Source of the DNA: Candidatus Bathyarchaeia archaeon
GTDB lineage: Archaea > Thermoproteota > Bathyarchaeia > Bathyarchaeales > Bathycorpusculaceae
Length of the DNA: 64,000 nt
Direction of reading: 5' to 3'
Assembly: GCA_049970895.1 (NCBI GenBank)
Contig: JBMFMB010000001.1
Span: 96,001 to 160,000 of the forward strand
Part shown: in pieces, positions 1,877-47,394 of the stretch
Numbering within the stretch: position 1 is the stretch's first letter
How the letters are laid out: each line of letters opens with the position of its first letter
Position numbers and translations under genes: made by a program
Notes under the pieces: model-generated
Databases searched by the model: none
What the model was told of the DNA's origin: nothing
The model's input: only the letters and a program-made list of their open reading frames with translations

Positions 1877-2740
1877 TTAAGTCTTCATTACTTTCCTGAG
1901 GATGTCTCGCATTTTTATGGCGTCAACATCCAATATTGGGCTTTCGCTTATTATGACTGGGGTTAGTCTAAAATCGGCTATGACCTTTGCCAGCATCTCA
2001 AAATCTGGTCCATAACCAGCCTCATCCATTGTGTGGTGGCACTTCTCCCCCTTATCGGTGAACTCAACCTTTGTGAAGTGGCAATGCATGTTTTTTACGG
2101 CTTCCGTTCCCAAACGTTTCTCAACTTCCTCCACAACCACACGAAAGTCGTCAACAGTTTTGAAGCGCCCACGGTTCCTCGCGTGCAGGTGCGCCCAATC
2201 TATGACTGGTTGGGTTTGCTCAACATGTTCACATAAAGCCAAAACCTCTTCTAAACTGCCAAACTGAGTTGGCTTCCCCATGGTTTCCGGGCCAAGCTTA
2301 ACTTCGCTTATACCAAGAGTCCTAAGCCTTTCAACAACATCCTTCATGGCTTCGAGGCATTCCCAGAAAACCTCTTTTGGAGGTTTTCTGCCATAAAACC
2401 CTGGGTGAAAGACGACAATTTGGGAGCCCATCCACTGAGATGCAGTGGCACACGCGATTAGGCGGTCTTTGCTGGCTTCAACAGTTTCTTTCCCACCACA
2501 CAAGTTTATGAAGTAGGAGCCATGAAGGCTTAAAACGACATCGTTCTCCCTAGCCTTCAACCCCAATTTTTCGGCGTCTTCCCTTCTAATTTGGGGCTTT
2601 GCACCCCAACGCACAGCTTGATATTCAAAGGCGTCTAAACCCTCTTCCCGTAGCAGTCTCGGAACATCTGTTAGGGCGGCTTTCATAGCCTTAAAACTTG
2701 GGGGTACCCCTGCCGGACCAAACCTTGGACGGTCAGCCAT
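1877..2740 (-). CDS. nfo: Endonuclease IV-like TIM-barrel nuclease
   Basis: HGSYFINL, VFHPGFY, GPETMGK, IDWAH, HCHF, IISESP metal-binding motifs. Confidence 0.8.
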   Translation of the reverse strand: MADRPRFGPAGVPPSFKAMKAALTDVPRLLREEGLDAFEYQAVRWGAKPQIRREDAEKLGLKARENDVVLSLHGSYFINLCGGKETVEASKDRLIACATASQWMGSQIVVFHPGFYGRKPPKEVFWECLEAMKDVVERLRTLGISEVKLGPETMGKPTQFGSLEEVLALCEHVEQTQPVIDWAHLHARNRGRFKTVDDFRVVVEEVEKRLGTEAVKNMHCHFTKVEFTDKGEKCHHTMDEAGYGPDFEMLAKVIADFRLTPVIISESPILDVDAIKMRDILRKVMKT

Positions 2741-2751
2741 CCCCTAAGCCC

Positions 2752-3663
2752 CTATCTGCTCTTTACCCTTCTAGGGCGATAACTTTTTCGCGTCAAAAAC
2801 CCATAGGAGAATGCCGCCAAAGCCGAAAACCAAGCTGCAACATTTTGGAAAATAAGATACTTGCCAACTGGAGGCAAATCCACGAGGGGCTTAGTTAAGC
2901 CTCCTAAAGCCGAAAGGAAACCCCGCAAGGCTGGCGCTGCAGAAATTATGGCATTATTTATGGATGAGCAAAGCCACTCGATGGGACCTAAAGCTGAAAC
3001 AAAGCCCTTCAAAGAGTTGTTCACAGATCTTACAAATTGTAGAAGGGATGGGTTCCCCTGGTAAATGCTTGAAAAAGCCGTGTAAATTAGCCCAGGGTAG
3101 ACGATAGCCGAAACCAATAGGATGAGGGCTGAAAAAATGAGAATGGTTATCAAAGCGCTTTTTATTGTCGCCCTTGCAAAGATAACCTTTCTCCAGATAT
3201 AGGAGACCCCCTTAATCCGCAAAAGTCCAGACTTTATCCTACCAAAAATTTTCTTTATGGCGCCACCTATTCTGGACGTGAGTTTCTCAGTTTTCTGAGT
3301 TTGCCCCTTCTTTTGCTGTTTGGTTTTTGGCTTTCCTTCTAGTGGTTTTTGAGGCTGCATAGCCGCGTATTTTATCATGCAAATCCAACTGAAGACAAGA
3401 GCAACAATAACCGATAAGGGGACAAGATGGAAAAGTGGGCTTACGACAATTTTTATGGCCCAGTTTGTTCCTGGAAACTGAAAGCTTCCCTTCAACGGGT
3501 TTTCTTCCTTAACTCCAAGGGAAATGGCGTAGAGAACAACGGCGTACTCGATGAGAGCGGCTGTCATGAGGAACAGGATTATTGCCGTTAAACCCTTAAC
3601 GGTTGCCCATCGAAGTATTAAACGCCTAGACAATCGATCACCACTATGCCTAGCCTCTCGCAA
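2752..3663 (-). CDS. Hypothetical membrane protein
   Basis: 303-aa ORF with several hydrophobic segments and a Lys-rich loop; no recognised family. Confidence 0.6.
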   Translation of the reverse strand: MREARHSGDRLSRRLILRWATVKGLTAIILFLMTAALIEYAVVLYAISLGVKEENPLKGSFQFPGTNWAIKIVVSPLFHLVPLSVIVALVFSWICMIKYAAMQPQKPLEGKPKTKQQKKGQTQKTEKLTSRIGGAIKKIFGRIKSGLLRIKGVSYIWRKVIFARATIKSALITILIFSALILLVSAIVYPGLIYTAFSSIYQGNPSLLQFVRSVNNSLKGFVSALGPIEWLCSSINNAIISAAPALRGFLSALGGLTKPLVDLPPVGKYLIFQNVAAWFSALAAFSYGFLTRKSYRPRRVKSR

Positions 3664-45156: not shown

Positions 45157-45432
45157 TTATCTGCTTACCCTTCTAACCATTATTGTTTGCACTTGGCTTA
45201 TTTCGCTTATCTGCTCAAAACGTTTTTCCAACTCTTCAAGCACTCCACTCTTATCCTCAGGAATTTTGATGGCGCAAATTAAGGCGTTTAAGCCAAAAGC
45301 TATAGGCTCTTCACCATAACCATATATGGTTGCAAATTCCGGCAGAGAAGCCTCAATCTTCTTCTTCAAATCCTCAAAATTCACAGTTATGTCTGTCGGA
45401 AAAATTTTGTAAGAAATTATAACATTTCCCAC
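45157..45432 (-). CDS. ef1b: Translation elongation factor 1-beta
   Basis: EEPIAFGLNAL; SD GGAGGTG. Confidence 0.93.
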   Translation of the reverse strand: MGNVIISYKIFPTDITVNFEDLKKKIEASLPEFATIYGYGEEPIAFGLNALICAIKIPEDKSGVLEELEKRFEQISEISQVQTIMVRRVSR

Positions 45433-45825
45433 ATTTTACACCTCCTATGGTCCAACAAAACCGCGCTTAAAGTGACGGAGAGCGAAATCCCGCAAACCCC
45501 CATTTTCTATTCTTTTATGTTTAGCGTGATTTACATAGCTATTAATAAGGCTATTGGTAGTGGTAACGCGGGCGACACTGTTAAGTTATTGATGCTGAGG
45601 CAATCTTTTAAAGTTTGATGCGGCCTTACGAAGTTATACCACAAGATAAATGTGACGCCAGCTTGTTGCTAAATTCGGACAAAAATTTATTAAAAGAAAT
45701 AAAACTTGTGAAAGCCGAGTTTTAATGATGGAACACCATTCTATGGAGGCAACATGATTAGAATGGTTATGCCTATGCCCAGAAGACTGTTTAAAGTATT
45801 CCCATTTTTCTATAAAATTGCGAAC

Positions 45826-46071
45826 TCATTTTTGTATTTGTGCTGTTAAGTAGGTTATGAATAGCTTTTCTAATTCGAGTATTTCGGTTGTGAGGACGTA
45901 GATGGCCTTTGATGTGTAATCTCTAACCTTAACGGCATAGCTGATCTCTTCCTTTAGGAGCTTTTCCCTTTCAAGGATAAGCCTTCTAGCCTCCTCCAAA
46001 CTCTTAATGAACTCTTCCATCCGTTCAACTCTAAAACTCAAAACATCACCTCCCACATAACAGTTTAACAA
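45826..46071 (-). CDS. Hypothetical helical protein inside the element
   Basis: GGAGGTGA SD before TTG (MSFRVERMEEF...); true start probably ~46041. Confidence 0.45.
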   Translation of the reverse strand: MLNCYVGGDVLSFRVERMEEFIKSLEEARRLILEREKLLKEEISYAVKVRDYTSKAIYVLTTEILELEKLFITYLTAQIQK

Positions 46072-46321
46072 GGCATCTAGAACTAAAAGCGTTTTTAAAT
46101 ATGATTACCCAGCAAACTTTTTAGATAAGCCTTGCCCGGCGCCATATCCATTAGGAAAAAGCTAAACTTTTGATAAGCCTGAATGTAAAGGATGCATTTA
46201 CAGGGTAGCCGATATTGCTGGAACGAGTGCCCTTACAATTTGTGGCGAGACTTTAATGGCAAGCTTTTAAAGGCTGGAGGTTAAATTGGAATTGAAGATT
46301 GTTACGGGTGGTTTTTAACCG

Positions 46322-46928
46322 GTGAGGGTGCGATTAACTCTCAGAAATATCTAGCAGGGACGAGTTGTTTTGCCTACAGATTATAATTAGCTAATTCAAG
46401 CTGCCATTTATAGTAGTGTTTCGCGAGAGCTGGCCGATTTTCTGCATGATAGAGGCTATCTCTTTGGCAAGAGGCAGTTTAAAATGTTTACGTTTTCAGG
46501 GCTTGGAGGGTATTGCATGTTGAATAGGGATAAAAAGCAGTTCGTTTTTGAAGGCGACATAACCTTATATATTTCTTCCCCTATCGAGAAATTTTGTTCA
46601 GGATCTTGCAACTACTATTGTTAAGAAAGGGTTTATCGTTTGGGCCAAAACATGCTTAAAGTGACTGACCTGGCTTTCCCCGCGAAGCCAGCTTTGAAAG
46701 ACCGTGAGCTGAGGGTTCGCATGCTGTCTCCTTTGACGATATACAGCACGCTCATGACCCTTGACGGCAAGAAAAAGACGTACTATTTTCACCTTACGAA
46801 AAAGAGTTTCCAGTCCTGGTAAATTCAAATGTAAAGAAGAAGCACTTTTTAATTTCGGGAAAAAACATTAAATCTGACCTTAAGGTTAAACCTTTAAAGT
46901 TTAGAGAAGTGATCACAATATATAAGGG
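46322..46928 (+). pseudogene. cas6: CRISPR endoribonuclease Cas6 pseudogene
   Basis: MRVRLTLRNI*..LPTDYN*LIQAAIY..ELADFLHDRGY..GKRQFKMFTFS..ISSP, then frameshifts, LSPLTIYST..KKKTYY..IYKG; lacks the Gly-rich C-terminus. Confidence 0.85.
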
Positions 46929-47072
46929 CTTGAAACCGTTTTTTACCCAAATTTTCACCCCCCTTGATCAAGAGGCTGATTTCAGCCCTGCTGGACCTAC
47001 ACCCTCCCCCTACATTTTCTGTGAAATGAATATGCCCGTGACCGTGCCGAGTTGCGAGGATACCTATAAGGG
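46921..47072 (+). CRISPR. Collapsed CRISPR remnant: two partial copies of one 30-nt repeat
   Basis: TATAAGGGCTTGAAAC (46921-46936) and GTTGCGAGGATACCTATAAGGG (47051-47072) overlap to give GTTGCGAGGATACCTATAAGGGCTTGAAAC. Confidence 0.55.
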
Positions 47073-47190
47073 TGACGAGCACCACTCAGCCGTCGCAAAA
47101 ACAGTTGATGAGGCAAGAGGCCTCATAAAGGCAGGCTTCGAATACGTATGCGACATAGAGGGCGTCAAACTGTTCAGAAAACGTAAGTAG
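47065..47190 (+). pseudogene. C-terminal fragment of a tyrosine recombinase/integrase
   Basis: DEHHSAVAKTVDEARGLIKAGFEYVCDIEGVKLFRKRK*, a tail recalled from Bathyarchaeia integrases; ends next to the att core. Confidence 0.7.
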
Positions 47191-47205
47191 GTCCTACAAA
47201 TGTCC

Positions 47206-47394
47206 CTAGGGACCCGTAAAACCGCATTTTGGGCATTTATATTGGCGTCCAAACTTGCGGCACTTTTTGCAGCGCCTAATTAAGATTTCTCCACAGTTTG
47301 GGCAGAAAAACTTTGTAGCTTCCGCTCCGGGCGGAATAGGCTTGCCGCAGCTTGTGCATGTAACTAGTGTTATTGTTGCTGTTTTTTCAGCCAT
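47206..47394 (-). CDS. Zn-finger protein (DUF1610/HVO_2753-like) normally co-transcribed with ef1b
   Basis: CTSCG...F.CPNCG...I.RC..CRK....[10 protein letters not shown]. Confidence 0.9.

Follow-up and report, generated by a model that had tools for sequence, protein, structure and literature searches.

A decayed remnant of a site-specific integrative element very probably separates a zinc-finger gene from ef1b in a hot-spring Bathyarchaeon

Why does a small zinc (Zn)-finger gene, which in most related Bathyarchaeia loci ends 14-40 nucleotides before the translation factor gene ef1b, stand far away from it in one hot-spring Bathyarchaeon, and why does a second copy of the gene's end precede ef1b there? 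The question is raised by the window studied here, a stretch of 64,000 nucleotides (nt) from Candidatus Bathyarchaeia archaeon (assembly GCA_049970895.1, contig JBMFMB010000001.1, positions 96,001 to 160,000), in which the two genes are 1773 nt apart; gaps are counted throughout from the last Zn-finger codon to the first ef1b codon. We consider it very probable (about 0.9) that the 1.75 kb between them is the decayed remnant of a Bathyarchaeial site-specific integrative element that had inserted in the last codons of the Zn-finger gene. The separation from ef1b, which the original prediction had described as an uncoupling of ef1b from its operon, is at least physically real, since ef1b lies 1773 nt from that last codon.

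The Zn-finger open reading frame (ORF) matches PF07754, HVO_2753_ZBP (E 4.2e-21, 74.9 bits, cut-off 33.2, model positions 1-46 of 46), and the protein keeps every invariant residue of the family alignment A1, where C54, C57, G58, F59, G61 and P62 do not vary and position 60 is free. The gene, which is on the minus strand, ends in AAA TGC GGT TTT ACG GGT CCC TAG, the core part being GCGGTTTT. At the insert's opposite end an orphan, AAG CGC GGT TTT GTT GGA CCA TAG GAGGTGTAAAAT GTG (45430-45470, minus strand), runs straight into ef1b, a gene 91-98% identical to 13 congener copies. The two cores, attL at the Zn-finger gene and attR beside ef1b, are spaced 1761 nt apart, and the direct repeat family to which they belong (D8) extends over 21 nt at 76% identity (16/21). 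By itself the 8-mer GCGGTTTT occurs five times in the window where 3.45 occurrences are expected, and 27 of 100 shuffles contain at least as many; a frame-aware 20-nt pattern, GCGGTTTTNNNGGNCCNTAG, matches the window at attL and attR only, and none of 100 shuffles holds any match. The orphan with its Shine-Dalgarno (SD) sequence (45430-45464) is 91-97% identical to the empty junctions of relatives over 30-35 nt (blastn), and on the ef1b side homology to the host sets in at position 45464, exactly the G of GCGG. The shared core of 8 nt that was first proposed describes the window correctly and fails as a general extent, site-pair identity varying between loci and reaching about 21/24 nt in L270.

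Empty sites are common in relatives. The genome set comprised the window genome (G000, 79 contigs) and 40 relatives, and the Zn-finger protein was found in 39 of these 41. Where relatives carry both genes at the locus, 23 of 24 loci show a gap of 14-26 nt and read like the orphan, ...TGCGGTTTT[G/A]TTGGRCCR TAG GAGGTGTAAAAT-ef1b; the exception is G005, with a gap of 1164 nt. Among congeners the empty junction is ...AAATGCGGTTTT[G/A]TTGGRCCR TAG GAGGTGTAAAAT-start, which is the orphan's sequence, and, apart from G005, each of the 11 congeners whose locus holds both genes is empty. The more distant genomes G029 and G039 are empty too, and the empty sites from other families are those of G029, G030 and G039. 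The second sample, 80 Bathyarchaeia species-representative loci overlapping with the relatives' set, contains 68 empty sites (gap of at most 40 nt), six loci with gaps of 107-3773 nt and six without ef1b on the locus. The range of gaps, from 107 nt to 3.8 kb, suggests progressive deletion.

An integrase remnant lies at the Zn-finger end of the insert. ORF 46909-47190 (plus strand) is convergent with the Zn-finger gene, with 15 nt from stop to stop, and the 38 residues at its end (DEHHSAVAKTVDEARGLIKAGFEYVCDIEGVKLFRKRK) are matched by the C-terminal tail of paralogous ORFs in the window genome (tblastn, 63% identity, E 3e-14), as well as by positions 347-386 of 386 in a hidden Markov model (HMM) of 17 full-length integrases (E 6.5e-14). 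The paralogs sharing this tail carry the HxxR...LGH...Y motifs of tyrosine recombinases. There is no PF00589 catalytic domain in the window copy, whose detectable part lies beyond the catalytic Tyr, and when the insert was searched with N- and C-terminal fragments of the paralogs for the rest of the integrase, the tail alone was recovered.

Intact integrases occupy the same position elsewhere. Full-length genes were found at L213 (420-amino acid (aa) frame, PF00589 E 3.4e-22, 79.5 bits) and L236 (401 aa, E 6.2e-19, 68.9 bits; cut-off 27.1), with integrase and Zn-finger stops 19-20 nt apart and the integrase ORFs whole, ending outside the attachment site (att). Window positions 47074-47229, covering tail and spacer, are 82.5% identical to L213 DNA over 160 nt (E 5e-40), the window gene end ACGGGTCCCTAG is letter-identical to that of L236, and the spacer motif GGGACATTTGTAGGACC is also present in L137, L119, L213, L236, L224, L270 and L250. 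Decayed or partial copies converge on the Zn-finger stop in several genomes: the C-terminal half of an integrase, 149 aa with the catalytic motifs, in G032 (HMM E 1.6e-65; PF00589 33.6 bits), a tail at a contig start in G035 (HMM E 3.2e-22), a frameshifted tail in G027, read by eye, and probably a decayed tail in G033, also by eye. The 80-locus set adds integrase tails at L137 (E 9.9e-9) and L128 (by eye), and further occupied sites with tails are L224, L250, L270 and L202/L264. Metagenome contigs were searched with the junction motif GGNCCYTAGGGACATTT, which gave 93 matches; 11 of them end a Zn-finger gene, including L284 from the window population, and about 79 have no Zn-finger, ef1b or integrase context and are regarded as chance. 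Since these sites were found by a motif derived from the junction, only their integrase and Zn-finger context is independent evidence.

The original prediction had taken the orphan for the original gene end, and had expected occupied sites in which a tyrosine integrase ends beside the core. The relatives' empty sites, reading like the orphan, agree with the former; the latter were found with full-length integrases in L213 and L236 and with partial or decayed ones in G032, G035, G027, L137, L224, L250, L270 and L202/L264. Because both the predicted empty sites and the integrase-bearing occupied sites exist, the orphan is the original end, and the last three codons and stop of the present Zn-finger gene are derived from the element.

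The element would thus have brought its own gene end, a protein-level mimic, as had also been proposed, and junctions of the attP type (the attachment site of the element) bear this out. What precedes AAATGCGGNTTTNNNGGACCCTAG at L242, L273 and L277 is an element arm that bears no relation to the Zn-finger gene; the pattern is AA[A/G]TGCGGNTTTNNNGGACCCTAGGGACATTT, with a conserved arm and no Zn-finger gene before it. The arm motif AAAAARRGG..TTGCGGG..GAT.TCTCC is common to the P arm of the window and to the attP-like or attR arms of L242, L273, G032 (L103) and G027 (L102), and AAAAGAATAG is shared by L114 and L119 as well. These three junctions are of attP type, and attP therefore holds a K-C-G-F-x-G-P-stop copy of the gene end. 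On one contig L277 and a true attL (L278) are 1.2 kb apart, and L242 lies 630 nt from an attR, which is what tandem integrations would give. The attP-like junctions were seen solely within such chromosomal tandem arrangements; in viral contigs the junction pattern had three matches, none with a Zn-finger gene or integrase, so that no free viral form was found there. From these sequences, a putative attP can be assembled in which AAATGCGGNTTTACGGGNCCCTAG stands between the P arm and the P' arm; the putative empty attB (the host site) reads ...CCAAAATGCGGTTTTGTTGGACCATAGGAGGTG....

The supplied and the original ends have had different fates. All element-supplied ends that were read encode an in-frame xGP-stop. 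In the window, the Gly and Pro codons of the supplied end differ from the original ones in their third letter and codon 60 differs in every letter, which fits a segment evolving as coding sequence. The orphans before ef1b read KCGFTGS-stop in G032 and TGCTACTTCACTAGCTCATGG in G027, and that of L270 is intact (AAATGCGGCTTTATCGGACCATAA); those of L114 (AGATGTAGGTTTGTTAGGTCTTAA), L119 (as L114, with a 1-nt insertion), L180 (GAGTTGTTTGGACCATGA) and L188 (AGCCTTTTTGAACCATGA) are decayed, and that of L242 is frameshifted.

A coherent course of events can be proposed. The element would have encoded an integrase made up of a Zn-ribbon at the N-terminus, a PF00589 domain and, as a conserved tail, about 40 aa. 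The attP of the element, just past the 3' end of the integrase gene, would have recombined with an attB formed by the last Zn-finger codons, strand exchange taking place within GCGGTTTT, codons C57-F59. As attP would carry the gene-end copy K-C-G-F-x-G-P-stop, the host gene would stay open and end in element-derived codons, and the original three final codons would be left on the ef1b side, together with the stop and the SD, as the orphan. Integrase and cargo would later have been deleted, and through this loss the insert would have become fixed and immobile. Observed in this scheme are the empty and occupied alleles, the junction at each end, the remnant of the integrase and its intact counterparts at the same site elsewhere, attP-like junctions and the decay of orphans; the recombination chemistry, the exact crossover, the original size of the element and the present transcription of ef1b are what we infer.

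The junctions are not an assembly artefact of the window genome alone. Logan contigs of two runs, likely from the source sample, include one contig per run that spans the whole stretch at about 65-74x. Identical pieces of the stretch occur in a run of another study, among them one of 180 nt across the Zn-finger/integrase-tail junction, and the metagenome contig L284, from the same population as the window, crosses that junction with 99.7% identity over 334 nt. No RNA run was listed as containing the locus. Both likely source runs have one base fewer than the window at 46958, and one of them has 11 additional nt after 45799. Both differences are in the decayed insert, and the change at 46958 alters the reading frame in the non-homologous N-terminal part of ORF 46909-47190.

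The view that the 1.75-kb spacer is ancestral and was deleted in relatives, or that the junctions are an assembly chimera, draws on the 79 contigs of the G000 assembly and on the separation of the two genes in other lineages as well; we give it next to no credence. A deletion model requires many independent exact deletions, each restoring an intact gene end and SD, in view of the empty sites in all 11 congeners with both genes bar G005 and in other families (G029, G030, G039). Against a chimera stand the single contig spanning the stretch in each of the two runs, at 65-74x, and the attL junction confirmed by a second study and by an independent metagenome contig. Nearly as improbable is the insertion of a DDE transposon or insertion sequence (IS), for which GCGGTTTT would be an 8-bp target-site duplication and the in-frame T-G-P-stop a coincidence. 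The insert is indeed bounded by an 8-nt perfect direct repeat, and it contains a WYNFVRPHQTL stretch that weakly resembles the end of an rve-type transposase (rve_3 E 0.071, 13.3 bits, cut-off 26.5); this match is sub-threshold, and the IS reading based on it was rejected. However, no transposase ORF or family above cut-off was found in the window insert, no inverted repeat pairs both insert ends among the 25 pairs listed of 50, an integrase tail sits at the junction with intact integrases at the equivalent place elsewhere, attP-like junctions hold the full mimic, and the likeness exceeds 8 nt (16/21 in D8, about 21/24 in L270).

Another alternative leaves the insertion itself untouched and concerns only the reason for the mimic: the ends may resemble each other because the integrase binds similar core sites in attP and attB, and not through selection for an intact Zn-finger protein. 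Tyrosine recombinases require paired core sites, and GGNCC-like words do recur at the locus, GGTCCCTAGGGAC being nearly palindromic, with GGGAC/GGACC repeated in the spacer and a TGCGG-like word in the P arm. Yet what differs between the two ends are the third letters of the invariant Gly and Pro codons and the whole of the variable codon 60, with the stop in frame, and orphans freed from coding decay quickly (GGN to AGG, CCN to TCN, frameshifts) despite being the same kind of site. As the sole explanation of the resemblance it seems unlikely, and the two forces are not exclusive.

Several observations weigh against the remnant of an integrative element as we describe it, or against its extension to other sites. 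Perfect identity between the junctions covers just 8 nt, which alone is common by chance. The insert of the window contains no catalytic integrase and is a remnant in this respect, its body (45517-47073) has no match in other occupied sites or elements, and no excision joint or empty allele of the window site was seen in the covered parts of the Logan contigs examined, which are contigs only. As contigs are interrupted within the elements, none was recovered complete, with its two ends and an intact integrase. The tails of G027 and G033 and several orphans were read by eye only, and the junction similarity of the metagenome sites is partly by construction. The integrase tree discussed below was built on 155 aa, three of its four rows with the Zn-finger target come from the pattern search, and the G032 integrase falls outside the clade formed by the others. 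The coordinates of the features on which the proposed course of events is based are collected in Table 1.

Table 1. Features of the Zn-finger/ef1b locus, in window coordinates
Feature	Position	Strand	Basis or remark
ef1b (aEF-1 beta), 91 aa, GTG start, intact	45157..45432	-	PF00736 E 4.1e-16
SD and spacer GAGGTGTAAAAT of ef1b, joined to orphan as at empty sites	45433..45444	-	Sequence, relatives' junctions
Orphan, original gene end GTT GGA CCA TAG (V-G-P-stop)	45445..45456	-	Like empty sites L009, L011, L020, L121
attR copy of core GCGGTTTT	45457..45464	-	Host homology begins at 45464
Element P arm beside attR: AAAAGAATAG ... TTTGCGGGATTTCGCTCTCC ... CACTTTAAGC	45465..45516	-	Motif common to other arms
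Insert body, decayed, no recognisable genes	45517..47073	.	No Pfam/PHROGs family; no match to other occupied sites
Tyrosine integrase, last 38 codons and stop, tail ...DEHHSAVAKTVDEARGLIKAGFEYVCDIEGVKLFRKRK	47074..47190	+	tblastn, HMM
Spacer / P' arm GGGACATTTGTAGGACC... between Zn-finger stop and integrase stop	47191..47205	.	Conserved among occupied sites
Element-supplied gene end ACG GGT CCC TAG (T-G-P-stop)	47206..47217	-	Differs from congeners' empty GTT/ATT GGA CCR TAG
attL copy of 8-nt identity core GCGGTTTT, codons C57-G58-F59	47218..47225	-	Likely strand-exchange region, placement inferred
HVO_2753-like small Zn-finger gene, 62 aa, intact	47206..47394	-	ORF listing, PF07754

The integrase belongs to a family that is multi-copy in 38 of the 41 genomes. 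Full-length members have about 400-440 aa and consist of an IS1/IS1595-like zinc ribbon at the N-terminus, the PF00589 domain and a tail of about 40 aa past the catalytic Tyr, ...EY.....AKT.EEA..L.EAGFEYVC.....LFRKRK (L213:3-1262 plus, L236:462-1664 minus, L055:655-1896 plus); this tail is covered by no Pfam, NCBIfam or PHROGs model. The intact integrases of the site match NCBIfam models of XerA/XerC/XerD type, every one below cut-off. L213 and L236 carry ...ETGMRSGEA..., ...HTFRHWKAT... and ...LLGHRD(V/I)KTTL(I/L)YTQ... (box I Arg, HxxR, LGH and Tyr), which we take to be the catalytic Arg, HxxR, His/Trp and Tyr. Among the six matches examined in the window genome there are only fragments, the longest open frame having 185 aa, and tail-only fragments of the integrase are dispersed in this genome (12 matches).

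Most intact members of the family are found near transfer RNA (tRNA) genes. At 11 of 16 loci with intact members a tRNA gene and the integrase stop are no more than a few tens of nt apart, the targets being Pro-GGG (four), Cys (two), Leu with a neighbouring Arg (two), Leu, Phe and Asn; one further locus has an intron-type tRNA-like sequence, by eye. No likeness of the tRNA-Pro att region to the Zn-finger end, which could have been a reason for a switch of target, was seen by eye. The tree, built on the last 155 residues, groups L213, L236 and L250 in a clade (support 95/94) whose sister is L070; the integrase of G032 and the tRNA-Pro-targeting L072 are in the next, weaker group. The Zn-finger-target label needs two changes on this tree, a number equalled by 4 of 500 shuffles, and this lends modest support to a target switch inside a tRNA-targeting family.

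The body of the insert includes an ORF of 81 aa (45826-46071, minus strand) and the non-homologous N-terminal part of ORF 46909-47190 (plus strand), and no insert ORF has a match above cut-off in Pfam or PHROGs. Variants about 92% identical to 46260-46900 occur in a run of another study. Better-preserved inserts carry as cargo an acyl-CoA dehydrogenase and an MscS-like protein (L119, the latter shared by L114), a DUF11 surface protein (L181) and an AbiEi antitoxin (G032), and an ORF beside the intact integrase of L236 has a weak ParG-like match.

Two short dispersed repeats were found in the insert. A repeat of about 31 nt (45655-45686) recurs near the ends of genome contigs C23 and C14 (L006 482-512; L007 119-148 and 278-308), the L007 copies forming an inverted pair about 160 nt apart that resembles a miniature inverted-repeat transposable element; no transposase ORF was found near the copies. 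Just upstream of the integrase tail, 65 nt (46984-47048) are 83% identical to the 679-nt contig C49 (L002 552-616) and partly match contig C16 too. Within the P arm (45465-45516), a TGCGG-like word precedes the core TGCGG by about 30 nt, and the A-rich AAAAARRGG lies still further upstream. These words could be arm or core sites of the integrase, or an outward promoter for ef1b; the arm also holds candidate TATA-like words.

Other arrangements at the Zn-finger gene were also observed. The gap of G005 (L013 / L098) holds another insert at the same junction, with two overlapping ORFs (115 and 92 aa) that by eye resemble fragments of a CorA-type transporter, and its spacer after the stop (AACATTTTTGTA...) merely resembles the attL spacer of the element family. 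G028 has a gap of 2.0 kb with an unnamed ORF of 346 aa and one of 141 aa, and no element signature. The Zn-finger gene has other neighbours at ten loci (G040, G026, G034, G025, G036, G038, L123, L131, L135 and L139); in the last four a conserved convergent gene, apparently the C-terminus of a membrane protein, replaces ef1b, again with no element signature. L202/L264 presents the Zn-finger gene (1821-2006, plus), the integrase-tail remnant (2034-2129, minus) and fen1 (2403-3434, minus, convergent on the Zn-finger gene), whereas fen1 of the window is on the opposite side of the Zn-finger gene and diverging from it. This placement points to a rearrangement at the att site.

The principle is already known from icd of Escherichia coli K-12 and from the 3' ends of thaumarchaeal protein genes; the present target and integrase group are new. 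Prophage e14 replaces a segment of roughly 50 codons in icd. There icd extends into the prophage and icdC, a C-terminal pseudogene, is left at the far end (PMC13626634). Common to both systems are a tyrosine-integrase element within the 3' part of its host protein gene, a substitute in-frame end whose changes are conservative, and the displaced original end, left as an orphan pseudogene (PMC13626634). E14 is bacterial, replaces a far longer segment and is still excisable; the Bathyarchaeial site has an archaeal host, a tiny replaced segment, an immobile copy in the window and a tight two-gene unit that was split.

Among archaea, Krupovic et al. 2019 (PMC6563490) assign 14 of 68 integrated elements of Thaumarchaeota to the 3'-distal part of protein genes. 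These include NitEve-E2, which is inserted in the gene of a Zn-finger protein and provides it with a new stop, the replaced 8 nt being described there as non-homologous (PMC6563490). The likeness lies in the archaeal host, a short att at the 3' end of a protein gene, the replacement of the last nucleotides and stop, and the reconstituted ORF. In contrast, the gene used by NitEve-E2 has 51 aa and is Nitrososphaera-specific, its att is ATAACGCACACAA and its integrase is co-oriented, according to the same text; the Bathyarchaeial element carries a codon-level mimic, and the same site was reused across an order. Tandem arrays are reported for other archaeal elements in this source (PMC6563490).

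With the tRNA-targeting members of its own family the element shares the domain order, the tail and a distance of some tens of nt between the integrase stop and the target's 3' end, mostly in convergent orientation, and differs in having a protein gene as target. Bacterial dusA-specific integrases also form a clade dedicated to one conserved protein gene (Farrugia et al. 2015, PMC4482086), in this case at the 5' end of the target. The 'suicidal' integrases of SSV type are likewise archaeal tyrosine integrases of integrated elements (PMC7253208), but attP in that type is inside the integrase ORF, which is split on integration, while the ORFs of L213 and L236 are whole and end 19-20 nt outside att. 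A 2021 review of archaeal tyrosine recombinases states that no archaeal intragenic att site had been tested for recombination (PMC8371274). No report of the Zn-finger target, or of Bathyarchaeial att sites in protein genes, was found in the limited collection of literature searched.

A wider history can be put forward tentatively, with somewhat less than an even chance of being right. A Bathyarchaeial integrase clade nested in the tRNA-targeting family may have switched to the invariant C-terminal Zn-knuckle codons of a micro-protein gene that is widely conserved in archaea, carrying a seven-codon protein-level mimic in attP. Repeated integration, tandem stacking and decay at this hot spot would have permanently rewritten the end of this gene in many lineages and broken, perhaps also rearranged, the Zn-finger/ef1b unit, and the conserved arm next to ef1b may supply a replacement promoter.

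To our knowledge, Bathyarchaeia are a class with almost no characterised mobile elements. The locus adds a well-documented non-tRNA attB for archaeal integrases in this class, at which all stages are visible, from intact integrase and tandem arrays to remnants of 1-4 kb and down to 0.1 kb. The putative attP/attB pair and the integrases of L213 and L236 may offer a site-specific integration tool for an uncultured lineage, and they bear on the point made about intragenic archaeal att sites in the 2021 review (PMC8371274). For the organisms themselves, the locus indicates that element-derived codons can become the permanent end of a conserved host gene, and that a tight gene pair that includes a translation factor can split with neither gene lost.

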